Assembly: GCF_000195975.1 (NCBI RefSeq)
Contig: NC_005070.1
Coordinates: forward strand, 1,170,001-1,202,000
Length of the DNA: 32,000 nt
Direction of reading: 5' to 3'
Source of the DNA: Parasynechococcus marenigrum WH 8102
GTDB taxonomy: Bacteria > Cyanobacteriota > Cyanobacteriia > PCC-6307 > Cyanobiaceae
The position numbers were made by a program, and so were the translations under genes. The notes under the pieces are model-generated. The model was not told where the DNA came from and made no database searches. It worked only from the letters and a program-made list of their open reading frames with translations. The first letter of the stretch is position 1. Each line of letters begins with the position of its first letter. Below, piece after piece: positions 1,902-13,174 of this stretch.

Positions 1902-2459
1902 CTAACGAAAGTTGTCGTTGCGAAAAATGGAGACTCTTAAGGTCGGACCGTCGCTGGCTATTGGTTCACTTCCAGCTGGAATCAACTCTGTTGCCCATTG
2001 ATAAATATCTGCATCAGGATTGAACCCTCGGAAGACAACGTTGGCTTGCTGGCCTGGTTGAATCGCTGGATCAAAGCGAATACTCAGCTCGTCGTCAGTT
2101 TGTGACATTGTTGCCTCACCAAGCCCGGGTTCGCCACGACGACGAAGGCTGTATTCACCGAGATACACCTCTGGATTCTTGGGTCCCCATGTCCATTGGT
2201 CGAGACTGGTCAGCTGAGACAGCACCAAACGCTCCAACTCGGCCCCAGCATCCTCTGGAACGCGGACACTGATGGTGGTTCGATTGCGTTGACCTTCCGT
2301 TGAGGAGGGATTGTGGATGCTCACCTTTGTTGGTGGTCTGCGGAAAAAGGTCTGTGCCAATGCAGGCCCACTGTTCATCAGCAGGACAAGTCCGGACAAC
2401 AGCCAAGAGGTGAACCAGGTCACGTGGTGGTTTGTTCGATCGTTCAAGGCTAGAAGCAA
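1902..2459 (-). CDS. Secreted protein of unknown function (possibly the cyanobacterial DUF2808 family)
   Basis: 185-aa ORF with an N-terminal signal-like segment (WLLSGLVLLMNSGPALA|QT). The track start is a TTG; an in-frame TTG and a GTG lie just downstream, so the start is uncertain. GC is intermediate, lower than the core. The family guess comes from overall size and architecture only. Confidence 0.55.
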   Translation of the reverse strand: MLLALNDRTNHHVTWFTSWLLSGLVLLMNSGPALAQTFFRRPPTKVSIHNPSSTEGQRNRTTISVRVPEDAGAELERLVLSQLTSLDQWTWGPKNPEVYLGEYSLRRRGEPGLGEATMSQTDDELSIRFDPAIQPGQQANVVFRGFNPDADIYQWATELIPAGSEPIASDGPTLRVSIFRNDNFR

Positions 2460-2616
2460 CTCAGAATGGGTTCCAGTGCCGATTGCCGCTAGCTCATCTC
2501 ATCTCTTCGAAAGGAACTGCTGCATCAAGACTTGGCTATGGCCTGCTCCTCCAGGAGCATATTTTTTGCTTATAACCCTGTTGCTGCAGGGGGTCTGAGG
2601 CTAAATGGTAATTAGT

Positions 2617-2636
2617 GTGCGCATAAAAGTGCGCAA
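2617..2636 (+). repeat. Left-end paired 8-mer module GTGCGCAT-AAAA-GTGCGCAA
   Basis: Read directly from the sequence. It has the same architecture and orientation as 12285-12304. Candidate protein-binding site (arm-type or operator). Confidence 0.6.
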
Positions 2637-3009
2637 AGGCTGAGTCCTGCCAAAGGGCGCTTTACCAAGGCCAGCACTGGGATGTCGGCTTTTTTCAAGC
2701 TTAGCCGGGAAAGCTTGATTATCAAATAAGGACCACCGAGGCGGTCCCTATCTGCTGCGCTGAGCCACCAGTCCACCGTAAAACTGGCTGTTTTCATAAT
2801 ACTCAAAACAGCTAAGCTGTAAGTATCTCAAATACGCGTTTTAGTGCCCAAACGTTAGCTACCTATTCAGGCTGACCTGATCATCAATCGTCTTCGTCTT
2901 GAAGCCAGCATTGAACGTCAGCGTGCAGTCTTTGAAATTGATGATGACGCACCACATGTGCCGTCCTACGACCCACTAGCAAATCCCCAAAGCCGTCGCA
3001 TAGCAACCC

Positions 3010-3420
3010 ATGTCAGCTGAATTTCAATCAATCGACGATCAGATCAAGGCGTCGTACCAATCTGCATCACAAGTCGAAACTCAGGCCCGTCAGCTTGAAG
3101 CCAGAATCGCCAAGATCGATGGTGCAAAGCGATACCTGCCATCACGTCGTTACGGTCAACCGATCGACATAGCAAAAATCAGGTCAAACCTGACACTTAC
3201 ATCGCTTATTGCACAAGATTCCGCAGAGCTAGCTCACTTTTGCGGTATCCACCCTGGCATTCGTCACCGTATGGACGAGGAGAAGGAGGCCAGAGCCCTT
3301 GCAGCGCAGGCCCTGCAGATGCGCACTGAAGCTCTCCGCCAGCAGAACCAGCAGCGTCAGCAGCAGGTGCAGCAACGTTCTCAACTCTCTCCGTGGCAAC
3401 GCGGTTACGGGAGCGTCTGA
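3010..3420 (+). CDS. Hypothetical protein, predicted coiled-coil with a Gln-rich C-terminus
   Basis: 136-aa ORF with ATG start. It contains an RQQNQQRQQQVQQRSQ tract. Its stop TGA (3418-3420) overlaps the next ATG (3420-3422). Confidence 0.55.
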   Translation: MSAEFQSIDDQIKASYQSASQVETQARQLEARIAKIDGAKRYLPSRRYGQPIDIAKIRSNLTLTSLIAQDSAELAHFCGIHPGIRHRMDEEKEARALAAQALQMRTEALRQQNQQRQQQVQQRSQLSPWQRGYGSV

Positions 3421-3773
3421 TGCTTGCTCGTCCTCATCCCGCCCTGGGCTGGCTGCACATCAGCCCCGCCGACACCAGACGTGTCATGGATCGTCTGCTC
3501 ACTGAACGTGATGCAGCTCTCGAAGTCGACCCAACCTTCAGTGGTGTGCCGCAGTCGTTCATCGACTGGACATGGCAAACATGGTTGCCATCACACCTGC
3601 ATCGCTACGAGCAGCAGGTGCAGGAACACCTCAGCTACCTCAACTTCAAGATCGCTGAGCTGAACGGTGATCTTGAAAAAGCTGCTGGCGGCATCCTCGA
3701 CAGCCGTGATGAAGCCGTTGATCTTCGTGATCGCTTGCAGCGTGAGCTTGATGCTCGGGAGCTGCCGTCATGA
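3420..3773 (+). CDS. Hypothetical protein, translationally coupled to the 3010-3420 gene
   Basis: Same frame as track ORF 3393-3773. The internal ATG at 3420 gives a TGATG stop/start overlap with the upstream gene. The C-terminus looks coiled-coil (LNFKIAELNGDLEKAAG...LRDRLQRELDAREL). Confidence 0.55.
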   Translation: MLARPHPALGWLHISPADTRRVMDRLLTERDAALEVDPTFSGVPQSFIDWTWQTWLPSHLHRYEQQVQEHLSYLNFKIAELNGDLEKAAGGILDSRDEAVDLRDRLQRELDARELPS

Positions 3774-3839
3774 CTCGCTCAGGCCTCTAACCAACGCAAT
3801 CGCCATGGATGCCCCTACTGCCAAGAAAAAACTGTTTCC

Positions 3840-4097
3840 ATGCCCGAAAACCAAGTGGCAGCAACGTATTCCAATCAGCAGCTACCGCCGATACAACCGC
3901 TACCCATGACCAACATCCTTGATCACGTCTCACCAACACCAGTCCTTGAAGTAGACGTCTGGCCACGCTCAGCAACGCGCAAGGAATGGTTCGCCATCAC
4001 CAGGCGCATCATTCAAGACACCATCGCTGATATGAACCTCGATCCTGCTGCTGAAGCAGAAGTGATCGAGGCCTTCAAAGGTGCAGGGCTGTTGTGA
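3840..4097 (+). CDS. Hypothetical small protein (start ambiguous: 3840 or 3906)
   Basis: 85-aa ORF. The in-frame ATG at 3906 forms an ATGA overlap with the stop of a 34-aa basic ORF (3805-3909, MDAPTAKKKLFPCPKTKWQQRIPISSYRRYNRYP). Two gene models are therefore possible. Confidence 0.4.
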   Translation: MPENQVAATYSNQQLPPIQPLPMTNILDHVSPTPVLEVDVWPRSATRKEWFAITRRIIQDTIADMNLDPAAEAEVIEAFKGAGLL

Positions 4098-4577
4098 ATG
4101 ATTGGGAGCTGACTAACTAATGGTCGTGCAGCTGCAGCTCAATCTCTCCATAGAAGAGAGCCTAGCGCCAACGATGGCCACGCACAGGGTGGTGGTGAGT
4201 AGCAGTTCATTGAGCATCTTTTCCTCGTTGTCTCTGTCCTTGGTCTATGACAAATAGTCAGCACTTGTAGCTCTTGTTACAAGCCTGAATGGAGTGAAAA
4301 CCAGCCAGCAAGAGCTGCAGGCTCAGTCACTAGGCACTGCAGCGGATTTCTAAGATATCTTGCAAACCAGCGAAAATCACCTGCCATCACTAATTACAGA
4401 AAGCCTGAAAAATGACCTGAAGCAACCAATTCAATTAGCTATACTGTTAACACCAGTTGCACGGGAGGAGTTGGGGGATGTTCAGCGCAAAGGGTATTAG
4501 GGTAACTTGATCATTCCTACCATCATTGACCTCCATAATTAGAGCATCACGTCCAAATCAAGAAATGCACTGAAATC

Positions 4578-5051
4578 ATGGAATACGTTGATTTTCTAAA
4601 TAGCAACGCCAGGATCGTTCACAATCAGGTAGTCAAGGCTGGGTATCAGATAATAGAGAACTCTCCCTATTGCCTTATGGCAAAACAGATATTGGCATTG
4701 CACAACGGAAGAGAAAAAAAGATTTATCTATGCACACAAAATCTCAAAAATATCTTGGTTTGGAGTGCTCCGACGGGTCCGAGAAATGTGTTCGCAAAGT
4801 CTAAAGTAAAACAAGCAAGATTTTATATGAGCAAGGCCCTTACACATGAAGCTGTTCATGCAGCCCAGTATTGCAATAATAATAACCTAATTGCCCCAGA
4901 AAGATCATCTTCTGTTGTTACCGATTTCAAAAAACAAGCTATACAGCTCTCCCTTGCTGTTGGAGGAACAAAACAAAGGGAGGAAGAGGCCTACCTACTA
5001 GAAACAAACCCAGCATTCGTTGTAGCGGCACTTAAGAGATTTTGTTTTTAA
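4578..5051 (+). CDS. Small putative zinc metallopeptidase (HExxH zincin), family unassigned
   Basis: 157-aa ORF with ATG start and very AT-rich codon usage. It contains ALTHEAVHAAQY, an HExxH motif followed by Q, reminiscent of SprT-like or DUF4157-like zincins. An acidic REEEAY segment downstream could supply a third ligand. Confidence 0.6.
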   Translation: MEYVDFLNSNARIVHNQVVKAGYQIIENSPYCLMAKQILALHNGREKKIYLCTQNLKNILVWSAPTGPRNVFAKSKVKQARFYMSKALTHEAVHAAQYCNNNNLIAPERSSSVVTDFKKQAIQLSLAVGGTKQREEEAYLLETNPAFVVAALKRFCF

Positions 5052-5458
5052 TTTTTGCAGCCCTAAGCATTAATTGTTAACCGCTCTTTTTTTGCATGCA
5101 TTTTAAATCATTATCCCAGCTCTTCCAGCAACGCATTACAGTGGAAGCTTCCGCCTCTAGCTACCTCAAAACTAAGTTTCTTACTGCAATGCCGTAAGGA
5201 ATGGCTTACAACGTGCTGCCATTAGTGAATAAGAGAATTTACACGAAACTCCTAAGTCGAAGCCTATACGACTACACCGCGAAATTAGCGCTAGTCCATG
5301 TTAGGTGCGAATAGAACATAAAAAGCCTTTCAGCCGATAATTTGCCGTCCTAGTAGTACACATAAACTATATGCAAGTACACTGGTAGTGCCATTTGTTG
5401 CATTGGATGCAGCTTATCAAGTTAAAATTTGTCATTATTTATTTTTATAAAAATGTAA

Positions 5459-5656
5459 GTGCTTCTTAAACTACTTGTTTCGTTGACGACTATTTCATTT
5501 TCAAACATTGTGCAATTGCAATTATTAGTTCCATCGATTTGCACGACTCATTACGGATACAAAGAGCCGCTTTCTGCGGATTGGATCAAGATCGGCGAGG
5601 AAACCGGTAAGGATGGAATCACTACGCCAATTTTTACCGTTTGCAAGCCAGCTTAA
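5459..5656 (+). CDS. Possible small secreted protein
   Basis: 65-aa ORF with GTG start and a hydrophobic N-terminus (LLKLLVSLTTISFSNIV). It sits in the AT-rich block, preceded by TTATAAAAAT. Weak support. Confidence 0.25.
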   Translation: MLLKLLVSLTTISFSNIVQLQLLVPSICTTHYGYKEPLSADWIKIGEETGKDGITTPIFTVCKPA

Positions 5657-5860
5657 TCAAATTGAGAATAGTGCTTGAAATTATATACTCAAATTTCTAA
5701 ATTAGAATTATTTACCATTGATCGTTCTTCACAATCGTCATCATTCCTTAACATCAAGTGAACTAATCAAAGAATTTGAGGGCATAGCCGCAAATTTGAT
5801 TGATTGTAATGATTTGCAAGCCTTTTGAACTATAGGCCCGATACTTGTATCATTTGCTTC

Positions 5861-6148
5861 TCAAATTTGATTGCAAACATCGGCGACAATCCTGGACTCG
5901 TAAATATTCACGGGAATCTGCCATTCTTTCCACTGACCTTCAGAACCTGTGGAATTAAAAAGCCTGTCTTGGCAATAAACACCAATAAAAATTCTCTGAT
6001 CTTTATTGTTCTTAGCAGGTATAACAACAGCAAAATCATTTTTGCGAGCATATTTGAAATCTAAGCGAAGGGGACCATACTTTCTTTCTTGTGCAATTGC
6101 ATTAGATGCAAGAGAAACGACGCATAAAAATCCGAGAAATCGTTTCAT
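5861..6148 (-). CDS. Small secreted protein, unknown function
   Basis: Internal ATG at 6148 of track ORF 5861-6232 gives MKRFLGFLCVVSLASNAIA|QERKYG..., a canonical signal peptide. The ATG overlaps the TGA of the upstream ORF (ATGA at 6145-6148). Confidence 0.55.
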   Translation of the reverse strand: MKRFLGFLCVVSLASNAIAQERKYGPLRLDFKYARKNDFAVVIPAKNNKDQRIFIGVYCQDRLFNSTGSEGQWKEWQIPVNIYESRIVADVCNQI

Positions 6149-6378
6149 ACATGAAAATAGTTGGGAGGCTGCATAATTTTTAGATTTTGCAGGCTCTGGC
6201 TGTAGGAGTTCAATGTTGCGAAAAGGGGCCATAATGGTGGCAAGCCTGCGGGTCTGAAGGAATAAATTCCTCTCTGTAAAGTAGCAGTCGATAAATGTCG
6301 ATATGTTGTTTTAGGTACCAACCCACTGTCAACAGAGCCCACTAATGTAACCATGCCAAGTACTCCTGGCGTATGCAA
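6145..6378 (-). CDS. Hypothetical protein, coupled to the downstream secreted-protein gene
   Basis: 77-aa ORF whose stop overlaps the ATG of the 5861-6148 gene (ATGA). No recognisable domain. Confidence 0.35.
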   Translation of the reverse strand: MHTPGVLGMVTLVGSVDSGLVPKTTYRHLSTATLQRGIYSFRPAGLPPLWPLFATLNSYSQSLQNLKIMQPPNYFHV

Positions 6379-6479
6379 ACATTTATCAGGAAATGTCTGG
6401 AACTCAACAAATAACTCTTAAATAAGTGACATTTGAGCAATAGTTTAGCCTAAATCAGCTTGTAACTAGTGACAGCGAC

Positions 6480-6659
6480 TTAATCCCACAAGACTCTCGG
6501 TTGGAACCTGCCATTACGGCGCTCATCAAGTATAGCTTCAGCAACATCAACTTCACAAGTAATGCTTTCCAGTGGGCAGGCCAAAGCGCGAAAAGGCCTA
6601 TGTGAGCCTTCAGCGATGAGGCTTCCAATTGATTGGGCGTTGGTGATGTGGATCGTCAT
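6480..6659 (-). CDS. Possible 59-aa protein (below the ORF-track cutoff)
   Basis: Manual translation gives MTIHITNAQSIGSLIAEGSHRPFRALACPLESITCEVDVAEAILDERRNGRFQPRVLWD. An AGGA lies about 12 nt upstream of the ATG. No family recognised. Confidence 0.3.
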   Translation of the reverse strand: MTIHITNAQSIGSLIAEGSHRPFRALACPLESITCEVDVAEAILDERRNGRFQPRVLWD

Positions 6660-6771
6660 TTGTTAAATCCTATTCTCTTAGGTCTAAACCTGCTCCGTCG
6701 GAGGTAGTCGTATCACATCTCACCAAACAAACGCCCAAGCCACACCAACGTCAACTGTGATTCTCCTCCAA

Positions 6772-7005
6772 TCACTTAGGTGATTTGAAGAAACCCTCAC
6801 TCCAAGCTGCGGTGGCCCGCAGAGGCTTGAGAAGCTCCGTCAGCGTGACAGTAGATACAGCACTCATTGATCGTCGCTCCACAAACTTGACGCGGCAAAA
6901 CGCCAAGCGATGATTGAACTTGCAGAGGCACCGAACGCGAGAAATGCGATCATCATCTGGGAAGTATTCACGGGTAACATAAGAGAATGCTTCCAAGCTA
7001 CTCAC
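6772..7005 (-). CDS. Hypothetical Cys-containing small protein
   Basis: 77-aa ORF with GTG start, divergent from the HTH gene at 7112. Weak support. Confidence 0.3.
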   Translation of the reverse strand: MSSLEAFSYVTREYFPDDDRISRVRCLCKFNHRLAFCRVKFVERRSMSAVSTVTLTELLKPLRATAAWSEGFFKSPK

Positions 7006-7111
7006 TAACGACTAACGCTGTTGTTACCAATTTGCAGCAGCAACAACTGGTCACGTAATACGCGCGTCATCTCAGCAATGCCGCTGACCCAATAAATCGC
7101 CGCTGATCACC

Positions 7112-7495
7112 ATGGCAAGGACTACCGCGAAAGAACGTTTAGCCCGAAGGGAACATGCGTTGGCGTTGCTTGCTGACGGCAACAGCTTTAGAACAGTTGC
7201 GGCGCTTGTGTCGGGAAAGTACGGGGTGTCTGAGAAGACTGCTCAACGGGACTTGACTTGGGCGAGAAACAGACTGGTAGGAGAACTGAGTTCGACGGAA
7301 GTCAAAGAGCTGTTGGCATGGTTCTGCCATAGAACTCAGACCATCGTTCAGAAAGCCGAGAAAGCAGGTGCTTACGGTGCTGCTGTTGCTGGCATGAACC
7401 TGATTTACCAAGCGGTGCTGTCGCGCGAGCTGGACAGTATTCACAGCAATCGGCATCGGGGATACGGCAACCGACACGGGAACTACAAGGGTTAA
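7112..7495 (+). CDS. Small helix-turn-helix DNA-binding protein (regulator, or possibly small-terminase-like)
   Basis: 127-aa ORF with ATG start. The N-terminus KERLARREHALALLADGNSFRTVAALVSGKYGVSEKTAQRDLTWARNRL has an HTH-like pattern. It ends 8 nt before the TTGCGCAC pair at 7503-7521. Confidence 0.6.
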   Translation: MARTTAKERLARREHALALLADGNSFRTVAALVSGKYGVSEKTAQRDLTWARNRLVGELSSTEVKELLAWFCHRTQTIVQKAEKAGAYGAAVAGMNLIYQAVLSRELDSIHSNRHRGYGNRHGNYKG

Positions 7496-7502
7496 GGCCG
7501 AG

Positions 7503-7521
7503 TTGCGCACTATTTGCGCAC
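7503..7521 (+). repeat. Paired 8-mer TTGCGCAC-TAT-TTGCGCAC
   Basis: Two exact copies with 11-bp phasing, in the intergenic region between the HTH gene and the 3' end of the helicase gene. Confidence 0.6.
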
Positions 7522-7640
7522 AATGATGCCCTTGATATCAGGTATACCAGCCAGCAAGGTCTATCTCGGCTCCTGACATGCTCCTGATGTGGGAGATCAG
7601 GCATGGATTCTCCTTTCAAGGTCGTTGTCTCTGAGTTGGC

Positions 7641-7667
7641 TTTCAACCCTTTCAACCCTTTCAACCC
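7641..7667 (+). repeat. Three perfect tandem 9-mers TTTCAACCC (iteron-like)
   Basis: Copies at 7641-7649, 7650-7658 and 7659-7667. An inverted 10-bp copy (GGTTGAAAGG, 7769-7778) lies about 100 bp away, and a degenerate TTTCAAGGT at 7614-7622 is in 9-bp phase. The repeats sit immediately 3' of the primase-helicase genes. Confidence 0.65.
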
Positions 7668-7743
7668 AGTGCTGTTCATCCCAAAAAGAAGAGGTTCAGC
7701 AGTTGGCTATGCAATAGGAAAGGGTCGAAACCCTAGAAAGGCG

Positions 7744-9060
7744 TCAGGCACACCTCCTGCTTTTTAGCGGTTGAAAGGAAACCACCTTTCCGCGCTTGTG
7801 GTCTGAACGGGTGAGCTTCTCCACCAACCTTTTGTTGGCCAAAGCATCCAGCGCCTGCAGAGCCTTCTGACGGGCGTTGTCCCCCAGCTCTTCAGCCATT
7901 GCCTTGGCAACCTCAGCTGGCTCCATGGCCCGGCTAGTGAGCATCCAGTGCTCTTCCACCAACGACAGCACTTCACTGTGCCGTTCGGTGAGTTTTGCCC
8001 TGACTTTGCTTAGGTCCAGCTGTTCGCTGATGGTGTTGCTGTCGCCGTGGCAGGACCAAATGGCACGGTCAACCTGTTCAATCACGCAGTCCACCGACTT
8101 GCTGCTGCGCCCCTCTGTGGTGAGCCGCACCCAATTGTCTTCTTTAGCGTCGGGGTTGAGCCAATGCAGGTTCACCACATGACTCGCCATTCGGCTGAGC
8201 CCCCTTCCTGCTGATGCGTTGGAGGCACGTTCATGTGCCCGTGATTTGGAACTGTGGTGCAGCAACACCGTGGTGATGTTGAACGGCGCGATGCTCTCCA
8301 GCAGGTTCTGAAGAGGCTGGACAGCAGCGTCACTGTCGGAGTCCAGACCAAGCGGTCCAATCAGCGACAGAAAGGCATCTAGTACCAGCACTGCCCAGGG
8401 GTTTTGTTCGCAGTCAGCGGTGATTTTCTCAATGCCTGCCTCATCAAGATGCAGCCCGTGTTCACGGGTGTAGAGCCGCACAACGGGATCACACACCCTG
8501 TAGTTGTCCAGGTCGGTGCGAATCATCAACCCGTTGGGCACCATCACCTCACGCCAATCAGCCAAGGGTTGATCGGTGCCAACGATGATCACCTTTGGGC
8601 ATGGTGGAGCCAGGCTGAAGCGTTCAAGGAACTCACCTCTGCCCTTGGCCAGTTCGCCAAGGATGTTGCACACCACAGCCGACTTGCCGACCTTTTGAAG
8701 GGCAACCACCAGCGTCAGGGTCCGCGCTGCAATGAGGTCCTGAGCTAGCCAACGCTCCTCTGGAATCTTGAACACGTCATCTGGGCTGATGCCCTCTGAC
8801 TCCCCGCGCAGGTTGGCGCGAGCCGTTGCCACCACAGCCGCCAGATCCTTGCCGGTGAGGCTCAGCCCTAATTCACCAGCCTGTGCCCGCAGCAGGATGT
8901 TTCGCTCATGCCACGGGGTCTTGGCGACTAGGTGGTGCTCCGCCGCATCGTGCAGTTGAGCCAACGCATCAACCCTGTCGCTAAGGGCTTTGGCCTCTGG
9001 TCGTTTTGATGGATCAGCGGCCTCAACCTGATCAACGATTGCGTGTAGTTCAGCGTGCAT
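7744..9060 (-). CDS. RecA-fold replicative ATPase/helicase (AAA_25 / RepA-like) with a C-terminal winged-helix-like domain
   Basis: Walker A ALQKVGKS, Walker B AVLVLDAF, and a TVLLHHSSKS segment typical of AAA_25 proteins. The track start at 9144 is a TTG. The ATG at 9060 overlaps the primase gene end by 11 nt, so it is preferred. Confidence 0.85.
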   Translation of the reverse strand: MHAELHAIVDQVEAADPSKRPEAKALSDRVDALAQLHDAAEHHLVAKTPWHERNILLRAQAGELGLSLTGKDLAAVVATARANLRGESEGISPDDVFKIPEERWLAQDLIAARTLTLVVALQKVGKSAVVCNILGELAKGRGEFLERFSLAPPCPKVIIVGTDQPLADWREVMVPNGLMIRTDLDNYRVCDPVVRLYTREHGLHLDEAGIEKITADCEQNPWAVLVLDAFLSLIGPLGLDSDSDAAVQPLQNLLESIAPFNITTVLLHHSSKSRAHERASNASAGRGLSRMASHVVNLHWLNPDAKEDNWVRLTTEGRSSKSVDCVIEQVDRAIWSCHGDSNTISEQLDLSKVRAKLTERHSEVLSLVEEHWMLTSRAMEPAEVAKAMAEELGDNARQKALQALDALANKRLVEKLTRSDHKRGKVVSFQPLKSRRCA

Positions 9061-9964
9061 AGCGGCTCCATCCGTGTTGCTTGGCGTGGAAAAACAACGT
9101 TCCTGCACCGATCTGTTCGCCACCAGAACGGTCAACTTGCACAACGTCCCAACCGCATGAATGGCTAGGGCTGTGAGCCTCCATCAGGTCAATGGCTACC
9201 TGTTCATCGACGTCAATGTCTCGGCAGGCCGCCATCAAGCCCCACAAGATGTCGCGGTAGTCGGCATAGGTGCCTGAACCTTCAACACGCTGTGGGATTG
9301 CTTCCAGTGCGTTGACGATTTCCCGCAGTGGCAGTGAGTTGTGCCGACCGCTGGTAAACCGCTTCCTGGCAGCAGGTTGCGGCTTTGGCACCGGCAACTG
9401 TGGCAGCACTGCATCCAGCTCTTCAGCTGAATAACGCGGGCCGTCCGCACTGATGATTTGAACCTGACCCTGGGATTCACCACTTCGGTTGATGTAGTGG
9501 CTCCCTGCCATCCGCATCATGCGGTTTTTGCCTTTACGGGAGCGATCACACCCTTCAGCTGCGATGTGCAGCCTTTCCATCAGCACGGTCCAGAGCGCCG
9601 GTTCAATGGGGCTCTTCAACCCCAGATATTGGTGGATGCTCTTGCCTTGTGTGTCGATCTGGAAGGTTGGCTCCAGACCAAGGAGTGATTCGCACAATCC
9701 AACCTGTTTAGACCGTGGTCGGTCATCGTGTTCAAAGAACAAGGTGCTGCAAAGGCTGATGTCCTTTGCTTTGGTGCCGCCGATGTTGGGCTGCAGGTAA
9801 ATCCCGTAGCCCTGGTTGTTCAGATCCTGGAAATGTTCCAGGTCCATGGCGAAGTTGCCATTGATGGCTCCACCGGCTTTGCCTTTGTATGGGATGGCAC
9901 GGATGTGGACATCACGTTCATCCCTGCCAAGCAGGTCCAGATGCCAATGGGGCTTGGGCTGCAT
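9050..9964 (-). CDS. Archaeo-eukaryotic-type primase-polymerase (Prim-Pol) with a PriCT-2-like C-terminal domain
   Basis: AEP-like motifs: LFFEHDD (acidic motif I), KSIHQY (motif II His) and MRMAGSHYINR (motif III). The C-terminal YADYRDILWGLMAA is PriCT-like. ATG at 9964 (the track start at 9967 is TTG). Confidence 0.8.
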   Translation of the reverse strand: MQPKPHWHLDLLGRDERDVHIRAIPYKGKAGGAINGNFAMDLEHFQDLNNQGYGIYLQPNIGGTKAKDISLCSTLFFEHDDRPRSKQVGLCESLLGLEPTFQIDTQGKSIHQYLGLKSPIEPALWTVLMERLHIAAEGCDRSRKGKNRMMRMAGSHYINRSGESQGQVQIISADGPRYSAEELDAVLPQLPVPKPQPAARKRFTSGRHNSLPLREIVNALEAIPQRVEGSGTYADYRDILWGLMAACRDIDVDEQVAIDLMEAHSPSHSCGWDVVQVDRSGGEQIGAGTLFFHAKQHGWSRYAR

Positions 9965-9974
9965 CAATGATCAG

Positions 9975-9994
9975 TTGCGCACCACCTTGCGCAC
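9975..9994 (+). repeat. Paired 8-mer TTGCGCAC-CACC-TTGCGCAC directly upstream of the primase start
   Basis: Two exact copies with 12-bp phasing. In the gene orientation it reads GTGCGCAAggtgGTGCGCAActgatcattgATG. Confidence 0.6.
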
Positions 9995-10134
9995 TGACGC
10001 CCCGGGAGGCGTAACTTGCTTCAGTAGTGCCAGTGCATTTGGATGCAGCAACCTGCTGCTTGTATAGCAGTTTGGGGCTTAGCCTTGAGGTATCACGGGC
10101 CTCATGGCTGCTCAATTTTTGGGCAGTCATTTTT

Positions 10135-10353
10135 TTATACCTCGCGGTCTGCTTGTTTCTTGAACCGGCGGTAATCCCGCATGTGGTGCTCAAAAGAGTC
10201 CTGCCACATCTCTCTGTTGTCTTGGCTGCGGTGCTGTTCCTGTGCCCGTTCGGCGCACACTGATGCGTGACGCGCAGACTGCAGCATTTTTTCCTGCGCG
10301 GTTAACTTGAACGGCACTTTCTTGCCGTTGTCATCAAAGGTTTGGCGCTGCAT
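10135..10353 (-). CDS. Hypothetical 72-aa charged protein
   Basis: The ATG overlaps the stop of the upstream Xis-like ORF (TGATG at 10353). No domain recognised. Confidence 0.5.
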   Translation of the reverse strand: MQRQTFDDNGKKVPFKLTAQEKMLQSARHASVCAERAQEQHRSQDNREMWQDSFEHHMRDYRRFKKQADREV

Positions 10354-10598
10354 CAGACCAACTCCTTAATCAGTTGTTCTGCCTGCCGACGAAGCTGACC
10401 GCGTCGGCTCAGCAGCTCCTGAATTGCTGCAACTTCCCAGCGAATCGGGCTTTTAGGAGTTGGCCCCGAAAACCAGTGCTCACCTTCGATTAAGGGACCA
10501 CCTTGAGAGTCCTTTAGTCGTTGGAGATGGCCCTGCGACAGGCAGAGCATGGGGGCTGCAGCTGATGTCTTGAACAGCTGCCGAATACTATCTGGCAT
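10353..10598 (-). CDS. Excisionase/AlpA-like small DNA-binding protein (putative)
   Basis: The track ORF starts at TTG 10652, but the first ATG is at 10598. MPDSIRQLFKTSAAAPMLCLSQGHLQRLKDSQGGPLIEGEHWF...IRWEVAAIQELL follows the pattern of MerR-type excisionase HTH proteins. It sits between the integrase and the replication genes. Confidence 0.45.
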   Translation of the reverse strand: MPDSIRQLFKTSAAAPMLCLSQGHLQRLKDSQGGPLIEGEHWFSGPTPKSPIRWEVAAIQELLSRRGQLRRQAEQLIKELV

Positions 10599-10911
10599 GG
10601 AAATAGGCGCACGAAGGTAACGTGCAGCGCCCCCTTGTCTCGTCCGGAGCAACTGCGACCCGTTCCAGAGCCTTCGTGTTTGGGCAGTACCCCTAACCGT
10701 CGCCTAGCCGGTTAGTGCTTTGTTCCTTTGCAGGATTCCGACCGTCACATGATGCTGTGATCGCTGGCAAGCCAGAAATGTCGGGGCCGAACTCAGAGAA
10801 TTCCTTCGTGGGCAGGGTGAAGAGTTTCGCTTACCAGCACGGTGAAGTTCAAATGAACATCACGTTCATAATGTAACCACATCCATTCGGTTCTGCGCAA
10901 CCCTGATGTAT

Positions 10912-12267
10912 TTACATCTCTGAATTGACCCGTTCAACCTCTGCTTTGAGGCTGGCGGCGTCAATCCAACGGCCATACCAACGTTGATGCGTCACCAAAT
11001 CGTGGCCCATCAACTTTGCTGCAGCACGGTGCGACATCTTCGTGTCTCCGTAGTTTGCGCGCCATGCAAATCCGTGCCGCAAACTATATGGCGTGATGTC
11101 TTCCGTTCCAGGGTTGGATTTCAAATTTTTCCATGCTCTGCATCTAACGCAGAGCATTTGCCGGAACTCCACCCCGACGTAACTGAATGAATCAATGTGG
11201 TTCGGATGGTCAGGCTTCATCCTGTCAATTTGAACCTGCAGTGCCGCTGGTAGTTTCGCCTTGCCTCCAAAAAACTGCTGCAGGACTTTGGCACCTTCAC
11301 GATTGCGCCCTTTGATTTCCAGGGGAAAGATGTCCCTGGCCTCAGGCGGATGCTTCATCTGTTTTGTGTTCCGCTTGGTGCTGACAACCCTTGCCTGACC
11401 ATCAACCTGGTGCAGGGTTGCAAGTTCGCTTGGACGGATGCCGCAATATCCAACAATCGCCACGGCAACATATTCACGGACCCTGCCCTCTTCCAGCAGG
11501 TCATCCAATAGTTCAACGAACATATCTGGCTTGATTGCCGGAGTGAGTGCATGTGTTGTTGAAACTGTCTTAAACCCCACCAGCTCTTCAATCTGCTTTC
11601 TGTCCGGCGGTAGATACCTTTTCGGCATCCCGCAAACATCAACGGCGAATTTTAAAAATCTGCCGATGTCGTCCAGGCTCTTTTTGCGACCGGATGCACC
11701 TGCCTCAATCTGAGCGCCTGGTTTGTGCTCCTCACCATTAGGGCCAAGGAAGTGGACTTCCTTATATGCCTGCATCAACCCCAGACCAGTCCTGGGCTTT
11801 GGTTTGTGGTGGTTCAGTAGAGCCATGGCCCGCTCCAGCCTGTAGTCGTAGTCCCGCAGGGTTTTCCAGCGGCAGCTTGATTTCGACTTGAGGAATTTTT
11901 CCAAGACGGCATCCCAGCCTTTGTTCGTCGTCAGGCCATGGCCGGACTGAGCTTCCGCTTGCTCATCAAGGGTGTCGGCGTTGATCTTGGCAACTTCGTT
12001 CAGTTCTTTTTGAGGATCAGCCTGAAGCGCCTTGGCTATGGCGATGACCTTGTTGAGGATCTGGCGCTTGCTGGATGCCTCCCAAGGGAACGGCAGCATC
12101 ACGCTGCTGCGACGACCGTCTTCAGTCCTGTGAGTCAGCTTGCAGGAGCCAGACAAGTTGCCGTCGCTGCGCTTATGGCCGCAGACGTTCCAGCCCAAGC
12201 CGATTTCGGTCTTGATGTCTTGCCGCAGGCTCTTGGCCCACTCCTCACCAGACCGAAGCTTTGGCAT
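10912..12267 (-). CDS. int: Tyrosine recombinase / phage-type integrase
   Basis: The C-terminal catalytic domain has GIRPSELATL (Arg I), TPYSLRHGFAW (box with H-x-x-R) and LMGHDLVTHQRWYGRW (His and nucleophile Tyr). It also has a long N-terminal domain. Confidence 0.9.
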   Translation of the reverse strand: MPKLRSGEEWAKSLRQDIKTEIGLGWNVCGHKRSDGNLSGSCKLTHRTEDGRRSSVMLPFPWEASSKRQILNKVIAIAKALQADPQKELNEVAKINADTLDEQAEAQSGHGLTTNKGWDAVLEKFLKSKSSCRWKTLRDYDYRLERAMALLNHHKPKPRTGLGLMQAYKEVHFLGPNGEEHKPGAQIEAGASGRKKSLDDIGRFLKFAVDVCGMPKRYLPPDRKQIEELVGFKTVSTTHALTPAIKPDMFVELLDDLLEEGRVREYVAVAIVGYCGIRPSELATLHQVDGQARVVSTKRNTKQMKHPPEARDIFPLEIKGRNREGAKVLQQFFGGKAKLPAALQVQIDRMKPDHPNHIDSFSYVGVEFRQMLCVRCRAWKNLKSNPGTEDITPYSLRHGFAWRANYGDTKMSHRAAAKLMGHDLVTHQRWYGRWIDAASLKAEVERVNSEM

Positions 12268-12284
12268 CTCCTGGGTGCTGCCCT

Positions 12285-12304
12285 GTGCGCATTAGTGTGC
12301 GCAA
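12285..12304 (+). repeat. Right-end paired 8-mer module GTGCGCAT-TAGT-GTGCGCAA
   Basis: Read directly from the sequence. It lies 18 nt upstream of the integrase start codon on the opposite strand. A further exact GTGCGCAA is at 12341-12348. Confidence 0.6.
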
Positions 12305-12412
12305 AAACATGGATACAAGCAACCACAAGTGATCACATTTGTGCGCAACCTCGCCGGTCAATGCAGCGCAGATCAAAGGCTGGGCCTGTGTTTATGAGGA
12401 TTCTCAGGCGAC

Positions 12413-13174
12413 TTATGAGTTTTTCAGCGACTGCTCCTCCAGCAGCATGTTGAATTGCAGGAGCTGTTCGTCGGTAAGTTGCTGACGGCTGCTGGCCTGC
12501 AGATGCTCCTGCAGAAAGCCTCGAGCCTGCTCTGCCTTCCAGCCCAGCTGTTTGAGCATTTGATCGCCCTGTGTGATCAGATCACTGCGGCGAATCGGAA
12601 TGTGGGCTTGATCCGGCTGCTCCTGGGGCTGCAATTGCCGTAGCTGGCGCAGGTAGGCCACCAGATCTGCATAGCGGGTCAACCGATGGCGACTGGCATG
12701 GCCGAAGGCCCGTTCGAGGTAAACCCGTTCCTGATCTCGCCCCCAGCCAATGCGCTTCAGCTCCAGATCGATGGCGGTGAGTTCTTCGCTCCAGTCCTCC
12801 GGATCTGTCGGTGTTTCTGATGGTGGATCCGATGGGGGAGCGATCAGTTGCGGTGTCTCTGCTGCAGGCGGCTGATCCACCGCGACCGGCTTCGCCATTG
12901 CCCTCGGTTGTTTGATCGGTGCCGGTTGAGAACGGGATTCCGCCACCCGAGTCTGAGGAGGCGTTGGCTCTGGCTTTGGTTCGGGGGCGACCTGCGGCTT
13001 GGCATCAACCCCCGCAAGCTTCTCTTGCAAGCGCCGCCGGGCGCGCTCTTCTGCGTCTTCCGCATTGGCAGCTTCGCCCAGGCAGCTGGCGATGCAGCGC
13101 TCACCATTCCAGGCCTCGACGCGCACGATGCAGCGCAGGGTGTCGACGTGACACAACTCGGCTCGTACCTGCAT
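12413..13174 (-). CDS. Conserved hypothetical protein with a Pro-rich linker and two internally repeated C-terminal segments
   Basis: 253-aa ORF with ATG start and core-like GC. It has an internal duplication (RIGWGRDQERVYLERAFGHASRHRLT versus QLGWKAEQARGFLQEHLQASSRQQLT). Confidence 0.7.
   Translation of the reverse strand: MQVRAELCHVDTLRCIVRVEAWNGERCIASCLGEAANAEDAEERARRRLQEKLAGVDAKPQVAPEPKPEPTPPQTRVAESRSQPAPIKQPRAMAKPVAVDQPPAAETPQLIAPPSDPPSETPTDPEDWSEELTAIDLELKRIGWGRDQERVYLERAFGHASRHRLTRYADLVAYLRQLRQLQPQEQPDQAHIPIRRSDLITQGDQMLKQLGWKAEQARGFLQEHLQASSRQQLTDEQLLQFNMLLEEQSLKNS

Follow-up and report, generated by a model that had tools for sequence, protein, structure and literature searches.

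What is the role of a cluster of short repeats that straddles the 3' end of a helicase gene in a marine cyanobacterium? The question is raised by a 32,000-nucleotide stretch of the genome of Parasynechococcus marenigrum WH 8102 (1,170,001-1,202,000 of a single contig of 2,434,428 bp), which is referred to here as the window and whose own numbering is used unless stated otherwise. The window carries an integrative island of 9.9 kb (2543-12448), and an initial annotation made from the letters of the DNA had proposed that the repeats, located between the island's helicase gene and a convergent gene for a helix-turn-helix (HTH) protein, are an origin of replication. This proposal is supported: on the evidence of sequence comparison, the segment at approximately 7613-7776 is probably the vegetative replication origin of the island, because the repeats recur at the same place in related elements, in the Rep-ori layout of the Staphylococcus aureus pathogenicity islands (SaPIs).

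Architecture of the repeat cluster

The repeats had been described as lying 3' of the primase and helicase genes, which is true on the minus strand, where the genes of the primase-polymerase (PrimPol; 9050-9967) and the helicase (7744-9060) are read. The repeat units start within the helicase gene, 25 nt before its 3' end, and extend to 131 nt beyond its stop codon, and the block is composed as follows.

7613-7622, plus strand: outer in-phase unit CTTTCAAGGT, kept in the closer relatives
7641-7667, plus strand: right arm, three perfect TTTCAACCC units
7668-7713, no strand: spacer of 46 bp between the arms, the proposed unwinding region
7714-7740, minus strand: left arm, three 9-bp-phased CTTTC-type units, nearly invariant in relatives
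7768-7776, minus strand: outer iteron unit TTTCAACCG within codons S-F-Q-P of the helicase gene, with TTTCAACC invariant across all relatives
7769-7778: inverted copy GGTTGAAAGG as first annotated, overlapping the preceding unit, within the last helicase codons

Tandem Repeats Finder (TRF) reports a single 9-bp array at 7640-7667 with 3.1 copies and a 100% match, and a degenerate copy at 7614-7622 sits 27 bp upstream of the triple repeat and is therefore in phase with it. The left arm reads CCTTTCT AG GGTTTCG AC CCTTTCC on the minus strand, again with a spacing of 9 bp. All features listed by the initial annotation lie where it had placed them, but these three inverted units at 7714-7740 had been overlooked and their addition results in a 4+4 layout. 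On the plus strand CTTTC starts at 7613, 7640, 7649 and 7658 and GAAAG at 7718, 7736 and 7773, with GAAAC at 7727, so that four cores stand on each side in opposite orientation and the inner three of each side are exactly 9 bp apart. The 9-bp spacing of the proposed iteron thus holds, whereas the 9-mer as a whole is not conserved and the conserved core is the pentamer GAAAG/CTTTC.

The GC content of the spacer is 0.40-0.50, below that of the region (0.53) and of the flanking chromosome (about 0.6), and an A-rich stretch at 7680-7694 lies within it (GC 0.40-0.45). A 19-nt motif, CCTATTGCATAGCCAACTG, runs from the end of the spacer into the left arm (7700-7718, minus strand) and is identical in eight of ten aligned relatives. 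No DnaA boxes were found near the repeat block.

The cluster is real, and a chance origin is excluded by the statistics. When one mismatch at most is allowed, TTTCAACCC matches the window at twelve positions. Five of them fall within the 136 bp of 7641-7776, and the remaining seven are scattered and approximate the 7.4 expected from shuffling. Across the genome five such matches per 200 bp occur only at this cluster, which is also the densest GAAAG/CTTTC cluster of the 2.43-Mb genome, with eight cores in 180 nt compared to six or fewer in windows outside it. Other genomic clusters of three TTTCAACCC-like matches were considered and set aside as coding DNA or scattered one-mismatch matches that form no array.

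Conservation in close relatives

Helicases with 71-96% identity to that of the island are encoded in thirteen contigs or genomes, the relatives' contigs being labelled marine Synechococcus. The blocks downstream of these genes comprise ten distinct sequences that align with zero indels over the first 136 columns, which include both arms and the spacer. Columns 19-122 share 86-97% identity with the window, compared with 79-91% for the coding DNA of the accompanying helicase genes. There is little or no variation in the GAAAG cores or in their spacing; the four bases between the cores vary (GGTT, CATC, CGTG, GGTA), and the perfect triple repeat is peculiar to the window copy.

One of the relatives, L004 (NYVG01000037.1), is labelled 'MAG: Gammaproteobacteria' (MAG, metagenome-assembled genome) and contains a Synechococcus-type helicase gene (79% identity), the candidate origin block and an hli-like (high-light-inducible) gene, and probably represents a contig of cyanobacterial origin that was mis-binned.

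Arrays beside distant helicase homologues

More distant homologues of the helicase (28-41% identity) are followed at the same place by 9-bp arrays of their own that differ from those of the window. In a comparison of the 600 nt after the helicase stop at each locus, with period-9 arrays called at a TRF score of at least 35, arrays were detected at 11 of 25 homologous loci, against 1 of 25 in the upstream 600 nt, 0 of 25 within the gene and none in the 600 nt that follow; across the genome the background amounts to 0.028 per 600 nt. The locus counts are inflated by kinship (the pairs L032/L038 and L034/L036) and represent at least eight independent lineages. The arrays include the following.

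L033: GGTTTGCAC, nine copies, four of them in tandem with inverted copies on both sides
L034 and L036: CGGACAGCA, six to ten tandem copies
L042: CTAACCTCA, six copies, then very AT-rich DNA
L032: AACCTCTTT, three copies facing one inverted copy beside the stop, the same layout as in the window
L038, L029 and L025: TTTAAAGGT, GTCCTTACC and GTCTTTTGT respectively, among the units of further lineages

Similar winged helices go with similar repeat units, as seen in L032/L038 and L034/L036. The array also stays beside the helicase gene despite a differing next gene: L004 has hli there, L032 and L038 have a co-directional open reading frame (ORF), and L054 has a capsid-protease gene. An absence of repeats at this position from related elements had been named beforehand as a result that would refute the origin proposal, but such repeats are present in the close relatives, in register, as well as in the distant homologues in the form of their own 9-bp arrays.

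Two further elements were observed in the course of this comparison. The low-GC, Prochlorococcus-like element at L054:7764-11745 (G356) encodes a helicase homologue together with a capsid-prohead protease fusion, a fragment of a NAD-ligase and a large serine recombinase; the DNA between its helicase and capsid genes holds an AT-rich stretch as well as six CTAACCTCA-type 9-mers. A second island in the genome of WH 8102 (L002; C1:353,145-363,223) is built in the same way and comprises an integrase, a PrimPol, a helicase and a convergent HTH gene. Its paralogous helicase (358,627-360,198; 35% identity) is longer and has a zinc-ribbon tail, and no significant repeat cluster was found directly after its gene, which is uninformative.

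The island helicase as putative initiator

The gene that adjoins the repeats has the following organisation.

7744-9060, minus strand: helicase of 438 aa with an N-terminal helical domain, a RecA-type AAA_25 core and a C-terminal winged helix (approximately 7744-8005)

Its homologues are 438 aa long and the start is therefore probably at 9060. The core matches Pfam AAA_25 (E 1.4e-13), and an AlphaFold2 (AF2) model built from 47 homologues (mean predicted local distance difference test, pLDDT, 85) shows the N-terminal helical domain and the RecA-type core, followed at the C terminus by three helices with a two-strand wing (pLDDT about 90). A PDB sequence search with the whole helicase gave no match. 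A Foldseek comparison of the model with the PDB retrieved DnaB helicases, RecA/Rad51, KaiC and RSF1010 RepA, the last of which (PDB 1olo) aligns with the helicase core at a target-normalised template modelling score of 0.66. When the C-terminal 85 residues are searched as a profile, the LexA winged helix is matched (1lea, E 1.2e-5), as are HrcA, MarR/SlyA and MecI at lower strength, and the Prochlorococcus-like homologue in L054 directly matches the Pfam entries HTH_27 and LexA_DNA_bind. The combination of a RecA-type fold with a LexA-like winged helix therefore describes a DnaB/RepA-like helicase with its own sequence-reading domain. The winged-helix DNA-binding domain expected at the end of this protein is thus borne out by both the model and the C-terminal profile, whereas the assignment to the AAA+ superfamily 3 (SF3) helicases of the SaPI type gives way to the RecA/DnaB-RepA fold. 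The helicase family is present in 56 of 401 genomes of the host's family, and a scan of IMG/VR with the helicase returned no relative.

The helicase is the probable initiator. The integrase would excise the island, upon which the helicase would bind the GAAAG cores via its C-terminal winged helix, the 9-bp spacing and the two opposed sets of four placing it at both flanks of the 46-bp spacer. The A/T-richer part of the spacer would then melt and helicase rings would load in both directions, while the adjacent PrimPol, an AEP-type (archaeo-eukaryotic primase) enzyme, would lay primers for extension by the host polymerase. DnaB-type helicases normally need a separate initiator and a separate loader. 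It is conceivable, if rather doubtful, that the island protein acts as a replicative helicase of the RecA/DnaB-RepA fold that loads itself and whose winged helix reads the 9-bp-phased pentamers, so that neither a separate initiator nor a loader would be involved.

Several observations weigh against an origin. The spacer is only mildly A/T-rich, and about half of the homologous loci lack a significant array directly downstream; at most of these array-free loci the helicase continues for a long stretch beyond its winged helix. The two arms are able to form a 15-bp stem that is 99% paired and includes one compensated pair in two sequences, which makes a structural role as RNA or single-stranded DNA possible. 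In addition, the helicase is one candidate reader of the repeats among the proteins of the island.

Alternative explanations

This last point leaves room for another island protein to bind the repeats in a role other than initiation, be it as a pac site recognised by a small HTH or TerS-like protein, as a copy-control or handcuffing array, or as an operator. A small HTH protein is indeed encoded convergently at a distance of 110 bp, and satellites of the wider family can bear terS or capsid genes (Hackl et al., bioRxiv 10.1101/2020.12.28.424599), a capsid gene being present in L054. However, the HTH gene occurs twice more in the genome together with its adjoining TTGCGCAC pair and without the iteron block, the block persists beside the helicase gene in L004, L032, L038 and L054, which lack an adjacent HTH gene, and neither Pfam nor PHROGs yields a TerS match for the HTH protein (P0003). 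A non-initiation role of this kind is thus improbable, even if it fares best among the alternatives.

It is somewhat less probable again that the inverted repeats act as RNA structure, either by terminating the convergent transcripts of the helicase and HTH genes or as a small RNA derived from the 3' untranslated region. The block lies in a convergent intergenic region and includes a terminator-like hairpin at 7734-7721, the helicase-sense fold has a z of -2.4, and the long-range stem is retained over ten sequences, in two of which one pair is altered on both sides; two further pairs shift to wobble and one cell is broken. Against this, the covariation score of the stem is equalled by 39 of 500 shuffles, the antisense fold has a z of only -0.8, no T-run follows the stems, and a permissive Rfam scan of 6500-8500 yielded nothing meaningful. 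Mirrored binding sites and a hairpin fit the stem numbers equally well. The arrays in L034, L036 and L042 consist of direct repeats only (6-10 tandem 9-mers) and cannot form hairpins, and the feature common to the family is therefore the repeated site and not the stem.

That the repeats are a small protein gene, namely the plus-strand ORF of 54 aa at 7603-7767 (FNPFNPFNP) or the minus-strand ORF 7302-7679, or else arose by chance slippage, is very unlikely, given that chance is excluded by the cluster and locus statistics and that the 54-aa ORF, open in the window, L005, L007, L008 and L014, is startless or contains stops in five of nine relatives (L004, L006, L009, L010, L011). Since the bases with the highest conservation lie past those stops, the conservation of the block is not due to coding and the coding explanation was rejected. 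ORF 7302-7679, already called an artefact of the repeats, shows no conserved coding, nor does the plus-strand ORF; ORFs called across the repeats should be dropped from the annotation.

The TTGCGCAC pair and the HTH gene

Beyond the outer in-phase unit, the region between the repeats and the HTH gene contains the following features.

7112-7495, plus strand: gene of a 127-aa HTH-like protein (P0003), convergent with the helicase gene and 110 bp from the repeats
7503 and 7514 (7503-7521), plus strand: pair of TTGCGCAC copies 11 bp apart, part of an operator-like set of 8-mers
7577-7605: small hairpin (CATGC..CTGAT / ATCAG..GCATG) just outside the last iteron, which includes CCTGAT/ATCAGG at 7583-7601

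The TTGCGCAC pair had been counted as part of the origin but is linked to the HTH gene rather than to the iterons. The HTH gene and the pair are duplicated at 1,512,261 and 1,520,779 of the genome (93-96% identity), where the homology ends before the iteron block, and it is because of this duplication without iterons that the pair is assigned to the HTH-gene module. The pair is also absent beside the block in L004 and L010, and was ruled out as an origin component. TTGCGCAC has 93 copies genome-wide and seven exact copies in the window, all of which are inside the island at four sites. Together with the GTGCGCA form the 8-mers are found at 2617-2636, 7503-7521, 9975-9994, 12285-12304 and 12341-12348, within the window only in the island, with pairs 11-12 bp apart. 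The TTGCGCAC sites, which are operator-like or arm-type in appearance, are located close to the two island ends, upstream of PrimPol and past the HTH gene. Relatives show GATGCGCAAAACGATGCGCA at the corresponding place.

The region surrounding the duplicated HTH genes (C1:1,512,261-1,524,643) is a decayed sister of the island, with the two HTH-gene copies, a PrimPol gene with an in-frame stop (74% identity), an N-terminal fragment of the helicase and cargo that is 83% identical to window 2720-3774; it holds no iteron block.

The small hairpin may be a weak terminator of the HTH gene or a single-strand initiation signal. In the alignment the close relatives have CCATGC-N7-GCATGG at its site with differing loop sequences.

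The island and its remaining genes

The limits of the island and the genes at its right end are as follows.

2543-2560, plus strand: left attachment (att) core CTGCTCCTCCAGGAGCAT
9050-9967, minus strand: AEP-type PrimPol of 305 aa, matching PDB 6zp9
10912-12267, minus strand: tyrosine integrase at the right island end, facing inward
12431-12448, plus strand: right att core CTGCTCCTCCAGCAGCAT, within the 3' end of a gene of the slr1353 family (12413-13174, minus strand)

The 18-bp direct repeat CTGCTCCTCCAG(G/C)AGCAT is present in exactly two copies in the window (2543 and 12431), with 0 expected. In two sister genomes (G183 and G386) the site is empty and contains a single copy of the att core, and the sequences that correspond to window positions 2357-2363 (approximately) and 12417-12428 are only about 117-124 nt apart. 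The paired repeats and empty sites therefore delimit an element of about 9.9 kb that has integrated into the 3' end of the flanking gene, a member of the cyanobacterial slr1353 family; no tRNA was found in the window.

From the right end, the integrase gene (12267-10912) is followed by PrimPol, the helicase and then low-GC cargo (3010-7000). The integrase scores 25.7 bits with Pfam Phage_integrase, just below the cut-off, and matches PHROG 1 'integrase' (E 6e-10). Residues 41-189 of the PrimPol match PDB 6zp9 (E 2.5e-17), which is the PrimPol AEP domain from cyanophage S-2L (PMC8065100). No Rep_3-like or RepC-like gene was identified among the island ORFs searched. Window 4000-7000, which belongs to the cargo part of the island, has a GC content of 0.38-0.45 versus about 0.6 for the chromosome and contains few long ORFs.

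Comparison with known replication systems

The origins of SaPIs consist of iterons with penta- or hexanucleotide cores directly downstream of rep around an AT-rich centre, with at least two iterons per side in opposite directions that are read by the winged helix of Rep (PMC9371898; Ubeda et al. 2007, 2012 cited there). The arrangement at the cyanobacterial locus, which had been likened to that of the SaPIs from the outset, agrees with this published description. As in SaPIs and other phage-inducible chromosomal islands (PICIs), the candidate origin is immediately downstream of the gene of the putative initiator-helicase, opposed sets of short-core iterons, here four per side, surround a more A/T-rich centre, here mildly so, the helicase has a C-terminal winged helix and the primase gene is just upstream, all within an integrase-bearing island of about 10 kb. 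In contrast to these systems, the helicase has a RecA/DnaB-RepA fold (Pfam AAA_25) instead of that of AAA+ superfamily 3, the primase is a separate AEP PrimPol, the 9-bp phasing is strict and conserved across the family, and the host is a marine cyanobacterium in which the system is known from sequence.

Tycheposons have been described from Prochlorococcus and other marine bacteria (Hackl et al., bioRxiv 10.1101/2020.12.28.424599). The island resembles them in being small, with an inward-facing site-specific integrase at one end, an adjacent replication module of 2-4 kb and cargo beyond, but is inserted at the 3' end of a protein-coding gene, whereas a tRNA is usual for tycheposons. The L054 element, with its helicase of 28% identity and its 9-bp array, fits the PICI-like type of the preprint. 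The preprint names replication genes; the word 'iteron' is absent from it and its sole 'origin of replication' is that of the chromosome (bioRxiv 10.1101/2020.12.28.424599). A search for literature that pairs iterons with Prochlorococcus found nothing relevant.

The IncQ plasmid RSF1010 resembles the island in its helicase RepA (1olo), whose structure matches the helicase core, in a dedicated AEP-like primase (RepB') and in an oriV with tandem iterons and inverted elements. In RSF1010, however, a separate protein, RepC, reads 20-bp iterons and RepA is without a DNA-binding winged helix, whereas the island helicase possesses one and no RepC-like gene is seen in the island. Iteron plasmids likewise differ in their use of a dedicated initiator and iterons of 17-22 bp, as compared to the island's 9-bp units with a 5-bp core.

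The alpha protein of the satellite phage P4, itself an integrative satellite, reads short repeated octamers at ori and crr via a C-terminal winged helix. Alpha is a single polypeptide in which the primase is fused to an SF3-type helicase, and P4 needs the second, distant site crr. A scan of the window for TTTCAACCC matches found no second iteron cluster in the island, in which it differs from P4.

Implications

The block is very probably the replication origin of the island; it is of an ordinary, known type but recurs across an ocean-wide family of islands, for which the literature searched describes no origin. The module is compact, comprising about 170 bp and two genes, and to our knowledge replicating-plasmid tools for marine picocyanobacteria are scarce; a cassette of the native helicase, PrimPol and origin is a candidate basis for plasmids in these organisms. 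If the helicase does load itself, the helicase and its array would constitute a portable minimal replicon, found in the same 56 family genomes, and the module could seed replicating vectors for marine Synechococcus and Prochlorococcus. The lineage-specific 9-mers may provide a natural specificity code with which to probe how a DnaB/RepA-like winged-helix helicase is recruited to DNA. For the biology of the family, the block represents a concrete and testable candidate origin for a group of small replicative islands by which genes are transferred between the most abundant phototrophs of the ocean.

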